DNA of 64,000 bases from Chlamydiales bacterium. GTDB taxonomy: Bacteria > Chlamydiota > Chlamydiia > Chlamydiales > SM23-39. How positions within the stretch are numbered: position 1 is the first letter of the stretch; the number at the start of each line of letters is the position of its first letter. The position numbers were made by a program, and so were the translations under genes. The stretch spans positions 74,289 to 138,288 of the forward strand of contig JANQFC010000027.1 of the NCBI GenBank assembly GCA_028278035.1, given 5' to 3'. Positions 4,787 through 62,281 of the stretch are shown piece after piece. The notes under the pieces were generated by a model. It was not told the origin of the DNA and did no database searches. It saw only the letters and a program-made list of their open reading frames with translations.

Positions 4787-6625
4787 ATGTCTGTTTTGCA
4801 AACAAGTAATTTTTTTCAGTCTTTATATGATAAATTCCAAAGAGGATTATATTTAAACGATAAATTTGAAGAGTCGAAGGTAGATGTTCGATTATTAAAA
4901 TTCGGAAAATTTATAGGTGCTCTTCCTCAGTATTCTATAAACCGTATAGTTTTGAGCGTGCTTGAGAAAAGTAAAGAGCTTGTCAATAACTTTGATGATC
5001 GAGGCGAAACTGCGAATATTGAAATTGCCAGTGAAGAAGAATTGAAATATGCATGGAAGGTTTTGGCTTTTTTAGAAAAAAAATCATCAGTTAGTATAGA
5101 GAATAAAGGGACTCTTCAAATTTATAGGGCACACTGTTCAGATTTATTTAATAGGATAAAGGCATATGAATTAGCGGCAAAAAGATGTCAGGCTAGGTGG
5201 AAAGCAAAAATTGAGGCTGAGAGAACTAGAAGGTATTTCATTTTACCTAAGAATATAGAATTATTGAGAAAAGAACTTTCAAATTATAGATTTTTAGATA
5301 CAGAGGGCAAGGTTTATGAGTTTTGTAGGTTTTTATCTCAAATGATGAAAATATATTATGAAAGAGGGGTTAAATATAGATTTGATAGGCATAAGTCTTA
5401 TAGGATTCTTGATGTAAATTATGATTGTTTTGGGGTGGATTTTTGGTTTCAATTAGATAAGGAAAGACATGAAGTGTTTTTATATTTTAAACTTCCTGTT
5501 AAGTTAGGTGGTGGTGGATTTAAAGATGTATTTGCATCAAAAACATTTACTATTTCCATGCCTTATCATAATGGTCTTACAAGGGTTGTTACATATCAGC
5601 CTACAGGTTTTGCTCAAATAGTCTCTGGTAAAAAAAGTTTGCAAAAAGATGTTCTTAGAGGTCTTAAAGTTCAAAAACAACTAATACAGCAACTTTCGAA
5701 TGCTAGAAATATAGCGGTGTTGCCACTTTTTAAAGGAGATCACAACAACCGTCTAGAGCTTATTTTTCCTTGGTATAACGGCGATTTTTTTACTGTTAAC
5801 AATTCTTTAAGAGGAGCGCCGTTAGATATTGATAAAACTTCATACAAAATCTTGACATTAGAAGATAAAATGAACGTTCTAATAGATATTGGAATGGTCC
5901 TTGCGAAAATGCATAAAATGGCATTGGTGCACAGAGATGTAAAAGCTACAAATGTTTTAGTAAGATATGAAGGTGACAACTTATGGTCAGGCCATTTAAA
6001 TGATTTTGATTTAATTGAAGAGTTCGGAAAATGCTCTAACGCAAGAAAATATTGTTATTGGGATTTAGCATCTCAAGAAGGATGGGCAATTCCTACTTCA
6101 GATGCATATGGACTTCTAATGTGTATGGGCGAGGCTTTTTTTGGCAAAGAGTTTTTAGATAATTTTGTGTTTCATAGGGAAAAGTTTAAAGAAACTAGCT
6201 ATTTTACAATGCTGGAGAGAATTGTCTCGAAAAAAGTAAAAAATGAAATTGAAAGCTTAGGGGTGCAGATGGAAAGAGAATCTTATAATACCGACTGTCC
6301 CTCTAAAATTGATTTAGAGCTTCAGTATGTAGTCGATGTTTTAAGGAAATGTGATTTAACACAAGAGCAAAGACAGGGTTTAAATAGACTGAAAAAGGAA
6401 ATAAGAATTTTAGAGATAAACCATAATTTTATCCGGGAGTGTATAGAGAGAGATAAACAGCTTTATAAAATTCTTACTCAAGATCTTTCCTTGCAGCGTA
6501 AATTAGTATACAGCGATGTTCAACAAAAATTAGTCGGAGCTGAAATTTTATATGATATTTTTCCATCAGTTGAACAATTGATGCAAAGATGTATTTCTAT
6601 AAGAGATATTTTAAGAGCGGAATAA
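4787..6625 (+). CDS. Divergent protein-kinase-fold protein (eukaryote-like, effector candidate)
   Basis: Catalytic loop LVHRDVKATNVLV (HRDxKxxN). DFD in place of DFG (LNDFDLIEEFG). Gly-rich loop GGGGFKDVF. About 230 aa at the N-terminus and about 130 aa of helical C-terminus match no family I recognise. Confidence 0.65.
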   Translation: MSVLQTSNFFQSLYDKFQRGLYLNDKFEESKVDVRLLKFGKFIGALPQYSINRIVLSVLEKSKELVNNFDDRGETANIEIASEEELKYAWKVLAFLEKKSSVSIENKGTLQIYRAHCSDLFNRIKAYELAAKRCQARWKAKIEAERTRRYFILPKNIELLRKELSNYRFLDTEGKVYEFCRFLSQMMKIYYERGVKYRFDRHKSYRILDVNYDCFGVDFWFQLDKERHEVFLYFKLPVKLGGGGFKDVFASKTFTISMPYHNGLTRVVTYQPTGFAQIVSGKKSLQKDVLRGLKVQKQLIQQLSNARNIAVLPLFKGDHNNRLELIFPWYNGDFFTVNNSLRGAPLDIDKTSYKILTLEDKMNVLIDIGMVLAKMHKMALVHRDVKATNVLVRYEGDNLWSGHLNDFDLIEEFGKCSNARKYCYWDLASQEGWAIPTSDAYGLLMCMGEAFFGKEFLDNFVFHREKFKETSYFTMLERIVSKKVKNEIESLGVQMERESYNTDCPSKIDLELQYVVDVLRKCDLTQEQRQGLNRLKKEIRILEINHNFIRECIERDKQLYKILTQDLSLQRKLVYSDVQQKLVGAEILYDIFPSVEQLMQRCISIRDILRAE

Positions 6626-51130: not shown

Positions 51131-54100
51131 ATGTCTTCAGTTATTAATTTACGTCAACAAGAAGGATTAGAGGTCTTCAAAAGAAGTTATCAAGAAGAAG
51201 ACGTTCAAGTTGCTATTAAAGAGTTTAAGGAATGGAAAGATCAACAAAGATATGGATTATCTTATAATGACATTCAAATAATTTTACAATCCATTACTGA
51301 AGAATTATTCCGAAAGAAAAATATTGAGTTTTTAAAACAAACCGCTTTAGCTTTTATTTCAAATAATGTAATAACAACTATCGATTCTCGAAGAATGTGC
51401 GGTAATTTTATAAGGTCACTTAACGTTTTAGGTAGCGATGTACTAATTGAAGTATTTTCTGCCGTTTTAGAGAAATGTAGTTATATATCAGCTTTTATAG
51501 ACAATTTTTATACTGGTGCTTTTGGTATCCCAGATGAAAAGGACAGAATAAAATTAGCTAAAATTGTTGCTGTTCACGATAGTTGTAGTATTGGGAATAA
51601 TATTCAAGAGTTTTGTATTTCAGATGAAAAAACAAGAGTAGAAATAGCGATGATAGCTGCACAAAAAAGGCGGGGTGTTGCTGATAACATTGAAAAATTC
51701 AATATTTCAGATGAAAATAGAAGGATTGAGATAGCTAAGATAATAGCGGAACGAGACGGAAAAGAGATTGCACTAACAATACAAAAATTCAGTATTTCAG
51801 ATGAAAATAGAAGAATTGAAATAGCAAAGATAGCTGCAAAAAATAGTCCTCAATATGTTGCTACATACATTAAAAAGTTCGATATTTCAGATGAAAAAGC
51901 AAGAATTGAAATAGCCGAGATATGTCTAGAACAAAATGCAAAAGAGGTAGCAAATTACATACAAAATTTTAATATATCAGATATAAATAAAAGGAGTGAA
52001 TTAGCCCAAAAAATAGCCACTAGAGATGGAAGAGCTATTTCTGAAAGAATACAAGATTTTCGAATTTACGATAAAGAAACGATGGTAAAAATAGCTATAG
52101 CTGCTGCAAAACAAAATGGTTCTAGTGTTATAAAAAATATTCGAAATTTCGCTCTTTCAAATGATCTAGCAATGATTGTATGTATAATAGCAGAACGAGA
52201 CAGAGAAAATCTCATTAAAAGTATTAAAAATTTTAACATAAATAGTAAATTTAAATTATTAATAGATTATTTGGAACTTCGGGAAATATTTGATCTTATA
52301 TTATTGAAATTACAGGCAGATAATCCGAATTATCAATTTACAGATGAAGCTTTAGTGGCTCTAAAGAAAATATATCAAAATATCATTGATGAGAAAAATC
52401 CCTTATGGCAACAAAATATGTTGGAATGTTTTTATGAAACTATAGCTGGAATATACCGAAATAATATTTCCTCCGAACAAATTGTTTTCCTTAGACCATT
52501 ATTAGAAAAAATTCAAAAATATCGCGAACCAGAAAGACGAAAAATACTTATAAATTTAGCCCTAGATGTCACTAGAACAAAATATAACCAGTTACATGAT
52601 ATTTTAAGTCAAAAACCAGATTATCAGCATTTGCCTGGATTATATTTGATTGATTTGATAAATGATGCGCATGTCTGTGAACAAATATTTCAGCTTATCC
52701 ATCGCATGTTTAGAGATGTAATGAATGCACGGATATTAATAGATGTGTTGTCTTTTTTAAAGGCGAGCAATTTAAGTCAAGAGGACAAAATATTCTTGTT
52801 AAGATATGCACTAGAGGGAAATAAAAAAGAGATACTTATAAAACTTACTGCCATACAGGGTATCTGCAGGCTGGAAGAAACTCAGCAATTGACTGAAGCC
52901 AATTTGACCCGATATAATCTAGATACTTTATTTCAACAAATATTCAACCAGCATGTTGAACATACACAGATAGATAATTTCGCAACAAAATTTAATCAAA
53001 CTTTTGCCAGATTTAGAAATCCATGGGCACTACTTACATATGCTCAGGGTATAAAAACTTTACAAGACCGAAGACTAATGTCTCTTTTGGGAAAATATAT
53101 CGAGTCTGTTCTCAATGGCGATTTTGAAGTGCGCTACGATAAAGCAATCAGTCCTCATTTAAAAAAAATTTTTTCATATAATAGCAAAATAGAAGAATTG
53201 TGGAGAAAAAGCGATAGAATTGAAATTACTCCAATGTCAGGTAACAATATAGAGACTAACATCAAAGAATATTTAAAGACTAAAATTATAACAGATCGAC
53301 ATTTAGGAAATTGTGCTGAAAAATTACCTTATCTCTATCAATACTTGATAAATAACACAAAGCCTACAATAGAATTGAAAAGAGATGAACTGGTTAAGCT
53401 GCAAAAATTATGCATAGAGCTTTGTGAAGCCTCTGCTTCAGAGCGTGTAACATATCTAGACAGGCTCTTAGCGCATTTACATGAAATGGAAAATGTCCGA
53501 ACTTTTATGCAGGATATAGAAGAGTTAAAACAACAATTGCTGCCAAAGGAATATAACCAGGAAGCTGAATGTACTATTGAGGATTACCCAGAAGACTATT
53601 TGGTTGTTGCCAGTGAGACAACAGGATGTCAGCGGGTAGATGGTAATCCTAGTCTAAATAAGGCTCTTTTGGCGTATATGATGGACGGTAAAAATAGAAT
53701 TATCGCAATAAAAGATAAAAAGACTGGTAAATTGATTGCCCGGGCGATTTTTAGAATATTGTGGGATAGAGATAATAATAAGCCCATGCTTTTTGTAGAA
53801 AGATTTTATCCATCTAATATTAAGCTTGAACATCAAAAAGCAATCCACGATATGGCTATAAAAAGGGGGAGGGAAATGAATTTAGATGTAGTGACTTCTA
53901 ATATATTGGAAAATACAGAGAGACATCTAGTAAATCTTGCTTCTTTAGGAGGAATAGCTCCTTTTGAATATTCTGATGCAGCTGGAGGTATGTTCGAAGG
54001 AGGTAAATTTATAATAAATGGACAATCAAATCTATATCTTTTATTTAAAGCCATAGATGCTGATTCTAACGATAATTCTGGATCGTGTTCAATTTTATAA
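51131..54100 (+). CDS. Large repeat-containing hypothetical protein (989 aa), effector candidate
   Basis: SD AAGGAA upstream. Contains 8-9 tandem 30-aa repeats and a long helical region. The C-terminal domain of about 190 aa matches no family I recognise. Confidence 0.7.
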   Translation: MSSVINLRQQEGLEVFKRSYQEEDVQVAIKEFKEWKDQQRYGLSYNDIQIILQSITEELFRKKNIEFLKQTALAFISNNVITTIDSRRMCGNFIRSLNVLGSDVLIEVFSAVLEKCSYISAFIDNFYTGAFGIPDEKDRIKLAKIVAVHDSCSIGNNIQEFCISDEKTRVEIAMIAAQKRRGVADNIEKFNISDENRRIEIAKIIAERDGKEIALTIQKFSISDENRRIEIAKIAAKNSPQYVATYIKKFDISDEKARIEIAEICLEQNAKEVANYIQNFNISDINKRSELAQKIATRDGRAISERIQDFRIYDKETMVKIAIAAAKQNGSSVIKNIRNFALSNDLAMIVCIIAERDRENLIKSIKNFNINSKFKLLIDYLELREIFDLILLKLQADNPNYQFTDEALVALKKIYQNIIDEKNPLWQQNMLECFYETIAGIYRNNISSEQIVFLRPLLEKIQKYREPERRKILINLALDVTRTKYNQLHDILSQKPDYQHLPGLYLIDLINDAHVCEQIFQLIHRMFRDVMNARILIDVLSFLKASNLSQEDKIFLLRYALEGNKKEILIKLTAIQGICRLEETQQLTEANLTRYNLDTLFQQIFNQHVEHTQIDNFATKFNQTFARFRNPWALLTYAQGIKTLQDRRLMSLLGKYIESVLNGDFEVRYDKAISPHLKKIFSYNSKIEELWRKSDRIEITPMSGNNIETNIKEYLKTKIITDRHLGNCAEKLPYLYQYLINNTKPTIELKRDELVKLQKLCIELCEASASERVTYLDRLLAHLHEMENVRTFMQDIEELKQQLLPKEYNQEAECTIEDYPEDYLVVASETTGCQRVDGNPSLNKALLAYMMDGKNRIIAIKDKKTGKLIARAIFRILWDRDNNKPMLFVERFYPSNIKLEHQKAIHDMAIKRGREMNLDVVTSNILENTERHLVNLASLGGIAPFEYSDAAGGMFEGGKFIINGQSNLYLLFKAIDADSNDNSGSCSIL
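51509..52246 (+). repeat. Intragenic tandem 90-bp (30-aa) repeats, consensus I-x-x-F-x-I-S-D-E-x-x-R-I-E-I-A-K-I-x-A
   Basis: Repeat-initial Phe at residues 131, 161, 190, 220, 250, 280, 310, 340. Examples: IEKFNISDENRRIEIAKIIAERDGKEIALT and IQKFSISDENRRIEIAKIAAKNSPQYVATY. Confidence 0.85.
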
Positions 54101-56578: not shown

Positions 56579-56730
56579 TTTGCGGCTTTATTTAAATATT
56601 TAATTATTAACTCTTTGTGATACAATTAAATTTCTTGTTAAAGTAATTATTTTAATTATATTTAGAGTTTTTTTTATCGTTGCAACTTCAGAAAGTAAAA
56701 GACAAAATAGAAGCAGTATCTATAATTATT

Positions 56731-57186
56731 TTATGTAAAAAAATATTCTAAAATTTCTTTTTGATAAGGAATTAATGAATATTTAAGAAAATCACTCTTA
56801 GAAATCCATTTATAATCAATATGTTCAATTGATAATTTAATAGATATAATATCATTTGTTTTGTAAAGAAAAACATTATGAGTATTGTGAACACCTTCTT
56901 TTTGAACTATAAATAATGTTCCTAAATATTTTAATCTATCAAGTTGTGGTTTACATCCAATTTCTTCTTTTAATTCTCTCAATATAGCTGAATAAATGTC
57001 TTCATACTTTTCCATTCTTCCGCAAGGAATACCCCATAAATTTTCAGACCATTTTCCGGGTGCTTTTTGCAAAAATAAAAATTTATCATTTAATCTAATA
57101 AAGCATGCGCAAGATTCAATATCAGATGTAAATGAACTTGGTTTGTTATAATAAATTCCAGGATTTAAAGAAATTTTACTAATCAT
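56731..57186 (-). CDS. NUDIX hydrolase
   Basis: Nudix box GRMEKYEDIYSAILRELKEEIG (Gx5Ex7REUxEExGU). Confidence 0.85.
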   Translation of the reverse strand: MISKISLNPGIYYNKPSSFTSDIESCACFIRLNDKFLFLQKAPGKWSENLWGIPCGRMEKYEDIYSAILRELKEEIGCKPQLDRLKYLGTLFIVQKEGVHNTHNVFLYKTNDIISIKLSIEHIDYKWISKSDFLKYSLIPYQKEILEYFFT

Positions 57187-57188
57187 AG

Positions 57189-57842
57189 TTATTTCGCTTG
57201 TTTTAATAATTTTAAATCTGCTCCAATAATATTTTTAATATTTCTTGAGATTTTTTCTTTAGACCAATCCCACCATTTAATTTTTAAAAGTTCATCTATA
57301 ATTTCATCACTAAAACGTTTTTTAACAATTTTAGCAGGATTTCCTGCAACAATTGCATATGGAGGAACATCTTTTACTACAACTGCTTTTGCGCCGATAA
57401 TAGCTCCATCTCCTATCTTTACTGCTGGCATAATAGTGCTATTATATCCAAACCATACATCATTGCCAATAACCGTATTACCTTTATTAGGAAGTTTAGT
57501 AAGATCATAATCTCTCTCCCATCCATGGCCCATAATTGAAAAAGGATAAGTTGAAAAACCATCTAATTTGTGATTTGCAGAGCTGGTAATAAATTTAACA
57601 TCTGTTGCTATAGCGCAAAAGTTTCCAATAATAAGCTTTTCTTTTGAGAAATTATATAAATAAGGTACGTTTTTTATTTCAAAATTTTCAGCCTCATTTG
57701 GATCGTCATAATAAGTATAATCACCAACTATAATATTTGGGTTAGTTATAAGAGGCTTCAAAAAAACTACTCTTTTAGTAGTTTTAAGATCGTAATTTAA
57801 TCCATCAAAAGGATATTTGCATTCAGGATTGGGACCATTCAT
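57189..57842 (-). CDS. vat: Xenobiotic (hexapeptide-repeat) acetyltransferase, Vat/streptogramin A acetyltransferase-like
   Basis: Collinear with Vat(D)/SatA as I remember them: GPNP...YP, IGNFCAIA, ANHKLDGFSTYPF, GHGWE, KGNTVIGNDVWFG, IMPAVKIGDGAIIGAKAVVVKDVPPYAIVAGNPAKIVKKRF, IKWWDW. Confidence 0.85.
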   Translation of the reverse strand: MNGPNPECKYPFDGLNYDLKTTKRVVFLKPLITNPNIIVGDYTYYDDPNEAENFEIKNVPYLYNFSKEKLIIGNFCAIATDVKFITSSANHKLDGFSTYPFSIMGHGWERDYDLTKLPNKGNTVIGNDVWFGYNSTIMPAVKIGDGAIIGAKAVVVKDVPPYAIVAGNPAKIVKKRFSDEIIDELLKIKWWDWSKEKISRNIKNIIGADLKLLKQAK

Positions 57843-57880
57843 ATTTTATATTCCTTAAAATTTAATATATAAATTACACT
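57808..57880. repeat. 73-bp direct repeat, copy 1 (vat 5' end plus upstream sequence)
   Basis: AAAGGATATTTGCATTCAGGATTGGGACCATTCATATTTTATATTCCTTAAAATTTAATATATAAATTACACT, identical base for base to 61393-61465. Confidence 0.95.
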
Positions 57881-57908
57881 TACCCAGTTTATAAAATCCT
57901 GATTTAGA

Positions 57909-58200
57909 TTAGTCCGAGCCAATATTAAAAGGCAATTTAAAACCCAAAGTGGCATTTAAACCTGCTTTGAAAAGGCAATCGGAAGCGGTTTTTTTTCCTA
58001 TACCGAATTGTTGACTTAAATCTTCGGTAATATTTTCAAAGTATTATACTGCCCAAAAAAAACCGATAGATATGCCGATTAAAATTAAAAATTTAGGCAA
58101 TCCGCCTTTTACAAGTATGGCAATCCCGTAAAGAGACTTTTCTTAAGAAATAGATAGAATTATCCTGGCTTAAGGAGGTACATTCGCAAGTATTGCAGCA
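57909..58200 (-). pseudogene. Gene remnant (two short frame-shifted pieces)
   Basis: Minus-strand pieces ...EKSLYGIAILVKGGLPKFLILIGISIGFFWAV* and YFENITEDLSQQFGIGKKTASDCLFKAGLNATLGFKLPFNIGSD* are separated by a shift at a T8 run. No start codon context. Confidence 0.3.
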
Positions 58201-58218
58201 GGGACTTTGGCTTCCTCA

Positions 58219-59823
58219 TTATTTTAGAAATTGTAAATTCGTAAATACAAACGGAAATAATAAAGAGCCGTCAGCAACCTGAACGATAGGGTTTGAAGAT
58301 TCATCGCTTCTTCTCCAAATAACATAAATATTTCTACCCGTAGAATCTGTAGTTATTTGTGAATAAAGCGCTTCTTTTCCATCATCAGAAAGATTTGGGA
58401 CTCCTCCATCGCCTGTAACAGTAGCTGGATTTTCCCAGGTAATACCATAATCAGCCGAAAAAGCTGTTTGAACAATATAGTTTGTTCCGTCATTTGCCCT
58501 AGTCCAAGTAGCATAAATATATCTACCGGTCGAATTGCTGACTATTTTAGAATCGCTAGCATTTCGTCCATCATCAGAAAGGTTTGGGACTCCTCCATCG
58601 CCGGTAACGGTGGTCGGATTAGACCATGTAATGCCATAATCGGAAGAAATGGCTGTTTGAACAATATAGTTTGTTCCATCATTTGCCCTAACCCAAATAG
58701 CATAAATATATCTGCCGGTCGAATCGGTAGCTATGTTAGCATAAGAAGAACTTTGATCATTATCAGAAAGATTGGGTGTTCCGCCATCGCCGGTAACAGC
58801 AGTCGGATTAGACCATGTAACGCCGTAATCAGCCGAAAAAGCTGTTTGAACAATATCGTATATCCCATCATTCGTCCTAACCCAAATAGCATAAACATAT
58901 CTGCCGGTCGAATCGGTAGCTATGTTAGCATAATAAGAACTTTGATCATTATCAGAAAGATTGGGTGTTCCGCCATCGCCGGTAACGGTAGTCGGATTAG
59001 ACCATGTAACGCCGTAATCAGCCGAAAAAGCTGTCTGAACAATATCGTATATCCCATCATTCGTCCTAACCCAAATAGCATAAACATATCTGCCGGTCGA
59101 ATCGGTAGTTATGCGAGGTGATGTAGCATTTTGTCCATTATCAGAAAGATTAGGTGTTCCGCCGTCGCCGGTAACAGCAGTCGGATTAGACCATGTAACG
59201 CCATAATCGGAAGAAATAGCTGTTTGAACAATCGCATTAGATCCATCAGATCTGGACCAAATAGCATAAACATATCTGCCTGTTGAATCTGTAGTTACTT
59301 GAGCCGATGAGGCACCATATCCGTCGTCTGAAAGATTGGGGGTGCCACCGTCGCCTGTAACGGTAGTAGGGTTTATCCAGGTGGTGCCGTAATCGGAAGA
59401 AATAGCCGTTTGAATAATCCCATTAGAACCATCATTGCGTCTTTCCCATACCGCATAAACATATTTTCCGGTCGAATCAGTAGCTATTTGTGGATAAAAA
59501 GCATTTCGTCCATCATCTGAAAGATTGGGAGTTCCGCCGTCGCCTGTAACAGTTGTAGGATTAGACCAGTTAACACTATAATCGGAAGAAATAGCTGTTT
59601 GAATGATAAAATTGGAATTATTGTATCTAAACCATACCGCATAAACATATTTTCCGGTCGAATCAGTAGCTATTTGTGGATAATCGGCTGATTGACCATC
59701 ATCTGAAAGATTGGGAGTTCCCCCATCACCTGTAACGGTTACCGGATCAACAAAATTAACTTCTGCGAAAATATTTGCTGATGCAAATATCATTAATATA
59801 AAAAAAATAAACTTTTTTAGCAT
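58219..59823 (-). CDS. Secreted BNR/Asp-box repeat protein (8 blades, sialidase-like propeller fold)
   Basis: Signal peptide MLKKFIFFILMIFASANIFA, then eight units of about 61-63 aa, each ending in an Asp-box (SSDYGVTWS / SADYGITWE, i.e. SxDxGxTW) and containing VTGDGGTPNLSDDG and TDSTGRYVYAIW. Confidence 0.8.
   Translation of the reverse strand: MLKKFIFFILMIFASANIFAEVNFVDPVTVTGDGGTPNLSDDGQSADYPQIATDSTGKYVYAVWFRYNNSNFIIQTAISSDYSVNWSNPTTVTGDGGTPNLSDDGRNAFYPQIATDSTGKYVYAVWERRNDGSNGIIQTAISSDYGTTWINPTTVTGDGGTPNLSDDGYGASSAQVTTDSTGRYVYAIWSRSDGSNAIVQTAISSDYGVTWSNPTAVTGDGGTPNLSDNGQNATSPRITTDSTGRYVYAIWVRTNDGIYDIVQTAFSADYGVTWSNPTTVTGDGGTPNLSDNDQSSYYANIATDSTGRYVYAIWVRTNDGIYDIVQTAFSADYGVTWSNPTAVTGDGGTPNLSDNDQSSSYANIATDSTGRYIYAIWVRANDGTNYIVQTAISSDYGITWSNPTTVTGDGGVPNLSDDGRNASDSKIVSNSTGRYIYATWTRANDGTNYIVQTAFSADYGITWENPATVTGDGGVPNLSDDGKEALYSQITTDSTGRNIYVIWRRSDESSNPIVQVADGSLLFPFVFTNLQFLK
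58687..59064. repeat. Two adjacent 189-bp intragenic repeat units, about 97% identical
   Basis: Units 58687-58875 and 58876-59064 differ at 5 positions by my manual alignment. A third unit starts at 59065 and then diverges. Confidence 0.85.
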
Positions 59824-60317
59824 AAAAAGACCTTATTTGTTAAAAAAGCATGAATGTTAAAAGAAAAATAAAAAAATTAAAATATTTTTTTATAAATTGA
59901 TGGCCAAAAAGGAGTTTTTTTTAAGATCTGATATAATTCGTTTTATAGACTTAAGCCTTTTAATTACTGAAATTTTTTAGTTTCTTTGACACTTGCTCAT
60001 GATAGGAGATGGTTTGATATTACGAAATAAAGTCAGTAAAGCTTGAGAAAAATGATATTATAATACTCTATAGAGGCTACTATTTGATGCAAAAGGAAAA
60101 TGCTTCGGCAAACAAGCCGTTTGGATTTTTTGCAAAAACTTGAAGGCAAAAGTTCCAAAGAAATATCGCATGAGTTATTTAAAAAAATTAACTAATATGT
60201 TGAAACTACTGAGCAATACAATAACACGACGGCTACAATTTTTAAGATATAATATTATTTGCTTAAATTGAATATCATTTGTTAATAATATCATTATAAC
60301 ATAGTAAGGAATAACAA

Positions 60318-61307
60318 ATGAAAAAATTGATATTAATGCTAATTATTTGCACAGGGCTTTATGCGGTAGATGACAAAGAATGCTGCGATAATGTAAATAA
60401 CTTTCCACAAGCTTTCTTGTATCCCGAGGATAAAAATTTAAGATGTTCCAATGATACATCAGTTTTTGGAGAATATTTATTATTTCATTTCTTTGAAGAA
60501 GGTTTGGAATATACCGCTGTCAGCGGAAGAAATAGAATAAGATATAATAGACTTAGTTGGAATTCCGGATTTAGAATAGGGGCAAGAACAATCATTAAAA
60601 ATTTAAGTTATATTGCTGCAGACTGGACATATTTGAAACTAAAAAAAGATAATAATGTTCAGGTGAACGACAATACTATTTTTGGTACTTTGCTGCCTCC
60701 TGATGATGTAAATTATATGAACTCAGCATCATCTAGATTTTCTTCTGATTTTAATACCCTGGATGTATACGGGACAGCTACTTATCATATAAGCCGATAT
60801 TTTATTTCCGAGCCTGCTATTGGTATTAGAGCCGCATGGATTGATCAGGATTATCATACAAGGTATTCGATCAGCAGTCAAAAAAACAATGTTTTTATTA
60901 AAAATGATTATTGGGGGGTAGGGTTAAGGACTTCATATAAAGGTAAATTTATTTTAAGTAATAATTACAGCTTGTATTCCAGCCTATTAGGTTCATTGTT
61001 ATTTTCAAAATTTGATGTGAGTCAAAATTCGCAGGTCAATAGCAATTTCATAAAATATAAAGAACAAAAGTCGGAATATCAGATTATTCCAAATATGGAG
61101 CTGGCATTAGGATTATTGTGTTCTAGATATTTTAATAATGATAAAAGTTTAATTTCATTAAAAATAGCTTATGAATTCCATAACTGGAGGAACTTGAATC
61201 AAATATATAGATTTTTTAATCAGACTAATCCATCCGGAAGTGATATAACCTCTAGAGGAAATCTAGCCATGAATGGATTTATCTTTGGACTGAATGTATA
61301 TTTTTAA
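60318..61307 (+). CDS. Cys-rich outer-membrane beta-barrel protein, MOMP-like (Legionella/Chlamydiales porin-like family)
   Basis: Signal peptide. Cys cluster after cleavage (DDKECCDNVNNF...LRC). FGEYLLFHFFEEGLEY resembles the conserved first strand of MOMP-like porins. Ends in an aromatic strand FIFGLNVYF. Confidence 0.55.
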   Translation: MKKLILMLIICTGLYAVDDKECCDNVNNFPQAFLYPEDKNLRCSNDTSVFGEYLLFHFFEEGLEYTAVSGRNRIRYNRLSWNSGFRIGARTIIKNLSYIAADWTYLKLKKDNNVQVNDNTIFGTLLPPDDVNYMNSASSRFSSDFNTLDVYGTATYHISRYFISEPAIGIRAAWIDQDYHTRYSISSQKNNVFIKNDYWGVGLRTSYKGKFILSNNYSLYSSLLGSLLFSKFDVSQNSQVNSNFIKYKEQKSEYQIIPNMELALGLLCSRYFNNDKSLISLKIAYEFHNWRNLNQIYRFFNQTNPSGSDITSRGNLAMNGFIFGLNVYF

Positions 61308-61392
61308 AAATACTCCTTATTTGAGAATGTGAAGATTTATAAAGCCAAAAACGAGGAAAAGCTCCTATCAGAAACTTGTATAATATTATTAG

Positions 61393-61465
61393 AAAGGATA
61401 TTTGCATTCAGGATTGGGACCATTCATATTTTATATTCCTTAAAATTTAATATATAAATTACACT
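61393..61465. repeat. 73-bp direct repeat, copy 2 (orphan copy of the vat 5' end)
   Basis: Identical to 57808-57880. Carries the first 35 nt of vat coding sequence with no gene body attached, 30 nt upstream of the GNAT gene start. Confidence 0.95.
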
Positions 61466-61495
61466 AAAGGGTAATTTAATTTTGATAAAAATATC

Positions 61496-62281
61496 ATGAA
61501 AAAAAATATTATCGGTAGCATATATAAAAATTTACTTTTCCAAGTCACTTATTTTGCTCCATATGTACCAATAATGCAAATTATAAAAAATGACTGCGTA
61601 ATTAAAATTACAGATATACAAGATGATACTTTTAATATGGTTTTAAAGGCTCATTTTACTCAACAAAATGCAAATAAGAAAATAGAAGAAGTTATAAGTA
61701 TTTTTAATACGAAAAATCTTCCTTTTTCTTGGTGGGTAGGACCAAATGATACTCCTGCTAATTTAAAAGCAATTTTAATTTCAAAAGATTTTGTTTCAAA
61801 AGAATATGATTATGGAATGTATTTAGATTTAGAAAAATATACTCCTAATATCTCAAGTGAATTAAAAATCAAGCAGATATCTAGTGCTAATGAATTAAAA
61901 GAATTTGATAATATCCATGTTCAGTCTTTTGGTAATCCAAATGCTTTTGAAATTATTTTTAGTAAAATTCCTTCTTTTTCATATCAGGATAAATCACCTT
62001 TTAGATTTTATACGGGATATTTTGAAGGAAAACCTGTTACAACTGGAGTTTTAGTTTTTCATGCAGATGTTGTAGGTATTTACTATATAGTTACTTTGCC
62101 AAATGAAAGAAGAAAAGGATATGCCACTGATATGATGCATTATTTACTTACTACAGCTAGAAAAGAAAATCAAAAAACAGCTGTTTTACAAGCTTCAGAA
62201 GAAGGAAAAAAAGTGTATGCGAAAATGGGCTTTAACGAATGTTGTGTTTTTCAAGAATTTGTTTTAAATAATAAAAAATAA
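61496..62281 (+). CDS. GNAT-family N-acetyltransferase
   Basis: C-terminal GNAT core VVGIYYIVTLPNERRKGYATDMMHYLL...AKMGF (R/QxxGxA-type acetyl-CoA motif). Confidence 0.8.
   Translation: MKKNIIGSIYKNLLFQVTYFAPYVPIMQIIKNDCVIKITDIQDDTFNMVLKAHFTQQNANKKIEEVISIFNTKNLPFSWWVGPNDTPANLKAILISKDFVSKEYDYGMYLDLEKYTPNISSELKIKQISSANELKEFDNIHVQSFGNPNAFEIIFSKIPSFSYQDKSPFRFYTGYFEGKPVTTGVLVFHADVVGIYYIVTLPNERRKGYATDMMHYLLTTARKENQKTAVLQASEEGKKVYAKMGFNECCVFQEFVLNNKK

Follow-up and report, generated by a model that had tools for sequence, protein, structure and literature searches.

Inserted DNA framed by direct repeats has been described for several systems. Transposases make target duplications of about 2–14 bp; integrase-borne islands and cis-mobilisable elements carry direct repeats of tens of bp at both ends, with a tRNA gene or the 3′ end of a gene as the site of integrase-borne islands; and break repair or template switching can give duplicative insertions, for which most of the documentation comes from eukaryotes and experimental bacterial systems. 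The locus analysed here lies in a 64-kb stretch of DNA (the window) out of a 302,887-bp contig from what is, judging by the best homologues of its vat, porin, and BNR genes in Anoxychlamydiales and Parachlamydiales metagenome genomes, an environmental chlamydia. In it, a segment of 3.5 kb with a divergent pair of genes, encoding a porin and a BNR/Asp-box beta-propeller protein, is bracketed by two identical 73-bp copies of the region in which a vat-like acetyltransferase gene begins, beside a GNAT acetyltransferase gene. The segment was probably gained in a single insertion, with a 73-bp duplication of the target, by an illegitimate, host-mediated route. Lineage-specific islets with a target duplication around them are a known arrangement; the length of the duplication and the lack of a mobility gene are what is unusual here.

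The locus shares with DDE transposons and insertion sequences (IS) a direct target duplication around the insert and a single copy of the target at the empty site of relatives, but its duplication measures 73 bp and neither a transposase nor terminal inverted repeats accompany it. With integrase-borne islands and cis-mobilisable elements it has in common the long direct repeats, an accessory surface cargo, and an unoccupied site in relatives; unlike integrase-borne islands, however, it has no recombinase in or near it and no sign of spread or excision, and its site is the 5′ end and promoter region of a gene. It differs from an integron gene cassette in lacking an attC-type hairpin, and no integrase was found in the open reading frames (ORFs) that were scanned (lengths of about 150 aa and more, between 39 kb and the window end). 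IS200/IS605 and other HUH elements have subterminal hairpins and make no target duplication, whereas this insert has no hairpins and a duplication of 73 bp, and a group II intron is set apart by the absence of an Rfam Intron_gpII match in the region. The closest likeness is to products of break repair. Microhomology-mediated break-induced replication or fork stalling and template switching (MMBIR/FoSTeS), as well as fill-in of a staggered break followed by end joining, likewise place a segment of other origin at the junction of a short tandem target duplication, and these insertions also share the 5-nt microhomology at the breakpoints and the absence of element-encoded machinery; the difference is that the mechanism in the window is inferred from one product and that the donor locus was not found. 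Campbell-type integration, too, leaves an insert between direct repeats of homology and is reversible by the same recombination, but it needs a circle that already carries the strain’s own 73 bp, and for this reason may explain re-integration, not origin.

The repeat, the empty site, and the polarity of the event

The features on which the argument depends are the following (positions are those of the window; the repeats and the inserted segment have no strand).

57189–57842, minus strand: Vat-like/CatB-related hexapeptide acetyltransferase gene (vat), 217 aa, intact, Pfam Hexapep; its 5′ end lies within R1
57808–57880: repeat copy R1, exact; comprises the first 35 nt of vat and the 38 nt before it, with an AAGGA ribosome-binding site among them
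57881–61392: inserted segment, whole, 3,512 bp (or 3,585 bp when one repeat is counted in), absent from the relatives L003, L006, and L093
61393–61465: repeat copy R2, which leaves the native DNA upstream of GNAT intact; also an orphan vat ribosome-binding site and start
61496–62281, plus strand: GNAT acetyltransferase gene, 261 aa, Pfam Acetyltransf_1/7/9/10; native divergent neighbour of vat

The initial annotation had reported a perfect 73-bp repeat around the module, made up of the first 35 nt of vat and the 38 nt before them. R1 and R2 are indeed the same base for base (zero mismatches), and the vat-like ORF at 57189–57842(-) gives the same partition. When the whole 64-kb window was searched at up to 3 mismatches, 2 copies were found, compared with none in any of 100 dinucleotide-preserving shuffles (0/100). 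Identity breaks off sharply on both sides of R1 and of R2. At R2 the vat frame stays open for 12 codons (MNGPNPECKYPF) and meets a stop codon at the junction; the resulting orphan ORF (61389–61427, minus strand) is aimed antisense at the 3′ end of the porin gene. The 73-bp repeat and both junction regions fold no better than shuffles (z -0.8 to +1.0), and the repeat itself shows neither internal symmetry nor the kind of structure that core sites have.

Three metagenome contigs from three samples, L003 (JGI), L006 (ENA), and L093 (ENA), hold the site without the insert. On L003, vat and GNAT are divergent neighbours 68 bp apart; L003 3988–5153 corresponds to window 57880–56715 (88%) and L003 3182–4064 to window 62271–61389 (83%), so that a single stretch covers R1 and R2 alike and the insert is missing. 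On L006, positions 231–1033 correspond to window 57880–57077 and positions 1–303 to window 61695–61393, and the two alignments overlap by exactly 73 bp. L093 is collinear in the same way and also lacks the insert. Homology to the three relatives ends exactly at 57880, the edge of R1, and restarts at 61389–61393, the right edge of the insert. In each relative, the 73-bp segment is present once, and vat and GNAT are separated by 65–68 bp; taking the insert and one repeat out of the window leaves a gap of 38+30 = 68 bp. A compact divergent vat/GNAT pair with a gap of about 68 bp had been predicted from the window alone, with related genomes named as the place to look for it, and it is present in all three, vat beside GNAT with a single 73-bp copy.

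Other comparators were sought. A vat query against metagenomes returned 80 loci, the top one being L011 (74% identical), which lies in a gene context unlike that of the window; L011 was rejected as a comparator for the insertion site, its different context making it uninformative. An exact-protein look-up with the window’s Vat and GNAT proteins gave no matching contig, and a GNAT query against GTDB genomes gave two distant Kangiella matches only.

The age of the event can be gauged from the repeats. The single copies of the relatives differ from the window repeat at 9/73 (L003) and 14/73 (L006) positions, while R1 and R2 differ at none. If R1 and R2 dated from the split between the window and L003, the probability of finding no difference between them would be ~7e-5 or less; zero differences put copy divergence below ~4% (95% level). 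The insertion would thus be younger than roughly a third of the window–L003 divergence, unless conversion kept the copies identical. The three empty sites, together with identical repeats where the relatives’ copies differ at 9–14 of 73 positions, strongly support the earlier claim of a recent insertion.

A neighbour-joining tree of vat, rooted on L011 and bootstrapped 300 times, grouped the window with L003 in 218/300 replicates and never placed the window as sister to all three empty-site sequences; given this topology, the insert could be ancestral only if precise deletions had happened independently at least twice. From these comparisons, an insertion in the window’s lineage is strongly supported as the polarity, rather than a deletion in the relatives.

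The structure itself also appears in an independent assembly. Logan contig L005 (run SRR20820740) matches window 59654–61422 at 100%, including a porin copy identical to that of the window, and ends exactly 30 nt into R2. Logan contigs are built from a k=31 graph in which each 31-mer occurs once (PMC12424806). The stop at 30 nt is explained by the repetition of the 73-mer in such a graph. Since L005 extends into R2, the raw reads contain the junction between insert and repeat, and they offer no other sequence following the insert’s right end.

Mechanism of the insertion and its alternatives

The initial annotation had seen no transposase, integrase, or inverted-repeat ends, and domain scans and end alignment uphold this for the insert. 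Only the BNR and porin ORFs (among those of at least 50 aa) carry domains, and none is that of a transposase or integrase; no tyrosine or serine recombinase was found in the insert or in the scanned ORFs at 39–64 kb. Aligned locally, the two 200-bp ends reach a score of 19 at best, where shuffles average 18.6 and go up to 29, and thus show no terminal inverted repeats, and the insert ends carry no hairpins, nor is there one of the attC type. A search for Rfam elements, including Intron_gpII, gave no match at 56.5–62.5 kb, plasmid and phage collections gave none to the insert, and promoter and terminator scans of the region did no better than shuffles. The inverted-repeat end of an IS on contig L008, described below, is absent from the window. 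A literature search for long target duplications in bacteria turned up nothing pertinent.

In the proposed scheme, a 3.5-kb fragment with the divergent porin/BNR pair would have entered once, at the junction between the vat 5′ end and GNAT, and the insertion event itself would have copied 73 bp of target to both sides. As a consequence of such copying, the start codon and ribosome-binding site of vat remain in place, and so does all of the native DNA upstream of GNAT. An incoming element that already carried the strain’s own 73 bp is implausible, given the 9–14 differences in relatives, which argues that the duplication was made at the target during the event. Two routes could produce it. A break with 73-nt staggered ends may have been filled in and then end-joined to a free DNA fragment, or a replicative template switch may have led out of the locus, copied the fragment, and returned 73 bp behind its point of departure. 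In the uninterrupted site, the breakpoints fall between ATCA and AAAGGATATTT and between ACACT and AAAGGGTAATTT, both directly 5′ of AAAGG; an identical 5-mer at that spacing occurs at ~0.002 (about 0.2%) of window positions. The AAAGG at both breakpoints fits microhomology-guided joining.

A cluster on the related contig L004 (756–4693) has LigD-type phosphoesterase, ligase, and primase-polymerase genes beside Y-family-polymerase-like (IMS) and S24-peptidase genes. This break-repair and mutagenesis cluster may bear on how such insertions arise; LigD-type genes like those of L004 are absent from the 64-kb window.

Several points weigh against a single host-mediated insertion. The AAAGG coincidence was spotted after the fact, and its right-hand occurrence is lineage-specific, the relatives having AAAAG or AAAAT. 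A donor copy or donor locus of the insert was not found in the searches, and the fill-in or template-switch step is deduced from the product alone. To our knowledge, a stagger of 73 nt is far longer than any enzyme-made target duplication in bacteria. The scan covered 64 kb, and a trans-acting recombinase, a second copy of the module, or more copies of the 73 bp may lie elsewhere. Contigs built at k=31 look the same whether the insert is integrated or the cell holds an empty site and a 3.6-kb circle. Finally, the carriers of NUDIX, vat, and GNAT genes, L003, L006, and L093, may share an islet with the window rather than genome-wide kinship, because they are defined by a small block with atypical G+C content at third codon positions (GC3, 0.11–0.16).

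Among the alternatives, one would make the module a non-autonomous integrative cassette, its repeats acting as attL and attR and a recombinase encoded elsewhere excising and re-integrating it, which would amount to a gain/loss switch for two envelope proteins. The module is precisely bracketed by direct repeats and relatives hold an unoccupied target; the two cargo genes form a compact unit whose ends fall in intergenic DNA; and the locus is prone to rearrangement in the clade, where vat is truncated in L004 and L007 and L007 has a group II intron remnant. However, the insert and the scanned ORFs encode no integrase or recombinase, the repeat has none of the internal symmetry or structure of core sites, and spread has left no trace, near-identical copies of the porin and BNR proteins being absent from the 5.8 billion proteins searched. 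Such a cassette would also need 73 bp matching the strain’s own vat 5′ region, which would restrict its cycling to one population. We consider this explanation unlikely.

A two-step rearrangement has a similarly low probability. A large tandem duplication would first join the module’s locus to vat/GNAT and a deletion would follow, the original copy of the module remaining some distance away. Genes are commonly relocated without mobile elements when a tandem duplication is later partly deleted, the host-like composition of the cargo is what an origin within the genome would give, and the 73-bp unit has AAAGG at each end, a microhomology of the sort from which duplications start. Against this, no second copy of the insert lies in the window (57 kb upstream and 2.5 kb downstream), and at the insert’s right-hand end the Logan contig crosses unbranched into the repeat, so that the reads show one context for that end. 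The scheme also requires two events with exact end-points where one suffices.

Somewhat less probable again is an assembly artefact, in which an empty site and a separate molecule or locus sharing the 73 bp were joined by the assembler. The assembly is of the metagenome type, and a k=31 graph cannot separate vat-R-insert-R-GNAT (R being the repeat) from vat-R-GNAT plus a circular insert-R. The insert-to-repeat junction was nevertheless recovered in an independent assembly of raw reads, and a separate molecule with exactly the 73 bp of the vat 5′ region would call for the same biological explanation. A circle of 3.6 kb that lacks replication genes would be lost, and could not be a stable state. 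As far as we know, 73 is not the default k-mer length of any common assembler.

Hardly more credit can be given to the idea that the repeats are the footprint of an undescribed kind of cassette movement in chlamydiae, whether by a trans-acting recombinase or nickase making ~70-nt staggered cuts at AAAGG-type sites or by a cycling non-autonomous cassette; if it were true, an undescribed system would shuffle porin/BNR modules between sites and strains as a heritable gain/loss surface switch. Least probable of all is an ancestral insert precisely lost in the relatives: homologous deletion between the 73-bp repeats would give exactly the empty site of L003, L006, and L093, but the copies should then differ at ~9/73 positions where 0 are observed (P ~7e-5), the vat tree demands the two or more independent deletions noted above, and five related contigs and the databases hold no porin more than 43% and no BNR protein more than 55% identical.

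Under a single host-mediated insertion, the module would now be static in the chromosome; it may be lost by rare recombination between R1 and R2, and would not be regained that way. Such recombination, a one-way loss that would restore the ancestral site exactly, is possible in principle. The initial annotation had gone further and read the module as poised for excision, an on/off cassette for two surface proteins. This reading is unsupported: an excised 3.6-kb circle has no replication or integration function, and there is thus no route back to “on”.

The cargo and its relatives

The insert contains the following features, to which the outermost gene of the flanking block is added.

56731–57186, minus strand: NUDIX hydrolase gene, Pfam NUDIX (E=5e-13), collinear with L003 at 88% nucleotide identity, GC3 0.11
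57881–58218, no strand: left 338 bp of the insert; no intact ORF, no recognisable homologue
58219–59823, minus strand: BNR/Asp-box beta-propeller gene, 534 aa, complete; Pfam BNR_2 (PF13088) and BNR (PF02012)
59824–60317, no strand: BNR–porin intergenic region, 494 bp, AT-rich, divergent; no ORF
60318–61307, plus strand: MOMP-like porin gene of the Legionella_OMP family, 329 aa; PF05150 at 80.4 bits (cut-off 25.4), residues 71–327
61308–61392, no strand: right-hand end of the insert (85 bp), following the porin gene on its 3′ side; neither a hairpin nor an inverted repeat shared with the left end

The BNR gene is built from eight tandem units of 186–189 nt (62–63 aa), each with an SxDxGxTW motif, and its product matches BNR_2 at 53.7 bits (cut-off 31.4) as well as BNR, as expected of the 8-blade BNR/Asp-box protein that had been announced for this interval. 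The units are 61–81% identical in nucleotide sequence to a reference unit; their number could grow or shrink, conversion could occur among them, and short-read contigs break at them. The C-terminus agrees with those of the full-length homologues P0169, P0170, and P0186, and a hydrophobic leader at the N-terminus, judged by eye, resembles a signal peptide; on this basis the beta-propeller is predicted to be secreted. Its best non-self homologues, from Anoxychlamydiales and Parachlamydiales, are 47–55% identical.

For the porin, the earlier description as MOMP-like and Cys-rich stands in its first half: homologues all belong to PF05150, as the porin itself does at 80.4 bits, and one is named “MOMP-like family protein” at its source, but 5 Cys in 329 aa do not make it Cys-rich. 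Inspection by eye shows a signal-peptide-like hydrophobic leader at its N-terminus as well, and its best non-self homologues, from Anoxychlamydiales, are 41–43% identical.

The left 338 bp had been taken for a decayed gene remnant, a claim that stays a guess. On the minus strand, ~77 codons can be read in one frame with a single interrupting stop, and the segment may be decayed coding sequence; it has no match in Pfam or NCBIfam and no similarity to the loci that hold BNR or porin homologues. Its only match among 1.8 billion protein representatives, a low-complexity repeat protein, was judged spurious. A frameshifted C-terminus of the BNR gene was rejected as its origin, the BNR gene ending like its full-length homologues.

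The GC3 of the porin and BNR genes (0.26–0.27) lies within the 0.21–0.29 of other window genes, and homologue searches found the cargo families only in related chlamydiae; the insert looks native or derived from a compositionally similar chlamydia. The divergent porin/BNR pair recurs in the same arrangement on L009, which argues that it travels or persists as a unit, while L091 has tandem porin genes and no BNR gene. Both cargo genes are thus members of the MOMP-like porin and BNR families of environmental chlamydiae, the window copy differing in that it lies within an islet of drug-modifying enzymes and is 41–55% identical to any sampled homologue. In L009 (3789–4142) and L008 (2061–2943), from another chlamydial metagenome genome, an IS5-type element with 27-nt inverted repeats (DUF4096 and DDE_Tnp_1) lies ~110 bp downstream of the BNR gene. 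Three tandem BNR genes occupy positions 2–4157 of L010, a short contig of Anoxychlamydiales type, a case of local family amplification.

The flanking islet and the consequences of the insertion

The target of the insertion is a block of NUDIX, vat, and GNAT genes, with an M1 peptidase gene as a further neighbour. The Vat protein scores 274.6 bits with the NCBIfam model Vat_ABCDEFH (NF000311), under its 300-bit equivalog cut-off, and is best called Vat-like or CatB-related; its closest homologue is P0001 on L003 (90% aa identity). The window GNAT is 75% identical in amino acids to residues 1–257 of the 449-aa GNAT of L003 (L003 2608–3957). This homology stops at window 62271, which points to a second breakpoint at the end of GNAT. 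The GC3 of NUDIX, vat, and GNAT is 0.11–0.16, compared with 0.21–0.29 in 25 other window genes, and resembles that of the genes on L003 and L004 (0.13–0.19). Synteny between the window and L003 is limited to NUDIX–vat–GNAT (56715–57880 and 61389–62271), and both outer flanks differ. The block looks like a small islet of drug-modifying enzymes, of foreign composition and horizontally acquired.

In L003, the islet has an additional APH-type phosphotransferase gene, and just past it, at 6131–6377(+), a HEARO RNA (RF02033, 93 bits, cut-off 83) overlaps a 110-aa ORF; HEARO is the RNA of IscB/IS200-IS605-type elements. Within the clade of the relatives, vat is 5′-truncated at one same point in L004 (1–102) and L007, equivalent to ~57672–57675 in the window, and in L007 (188–263(-) and 262–777(-)) a group II intron remnant (RF00029, 55 bits) with a maturase-domain ORF lies upstream of the truncated gene. 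To judge from these contigs, the vat locus is one that has been rearranged repeatedly in this clade. Elsewhere in the window, an ORF at 51131–54100(+) encodes 989 aa with many ~35-aa repeats (…NIQEFCISDEK…RIEIAKI…) and no Pfam match, and could be a lineage-specific repeat protein.

For the two flanking genes, the insertion has had different outcomes. The DNA upstream of GNAT is still all native (30 nt plus R2), whereas the native upstream DNA of vat is reduced to 38 nt, and the co-oriented BNR gene now lies 376 bp upstream. Transcripts of vat probably arise by read-through out of the BNR gene or from a new promoter.

As a single event, the insertion is mainly a useful marker for strain comparison. 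It is also a rare bacterial case in which the target duplication of an insertion is very long (73 bp) and has preserved both flanking genes, and further cases with a similar duplication length would point to a specific mechanism. For an obligate intracellular lineage, it documents a polarised gene gain of which both the state before, in three relatives, and the state after are known, with a cargo, a porin and a predicted secreted beta-propeller, that alters the cell envelope. At the strength given above to a single host-mediated insertion, environmental chlamydiae would still be acquiring or relocating envelope genes without classical mobile elements.

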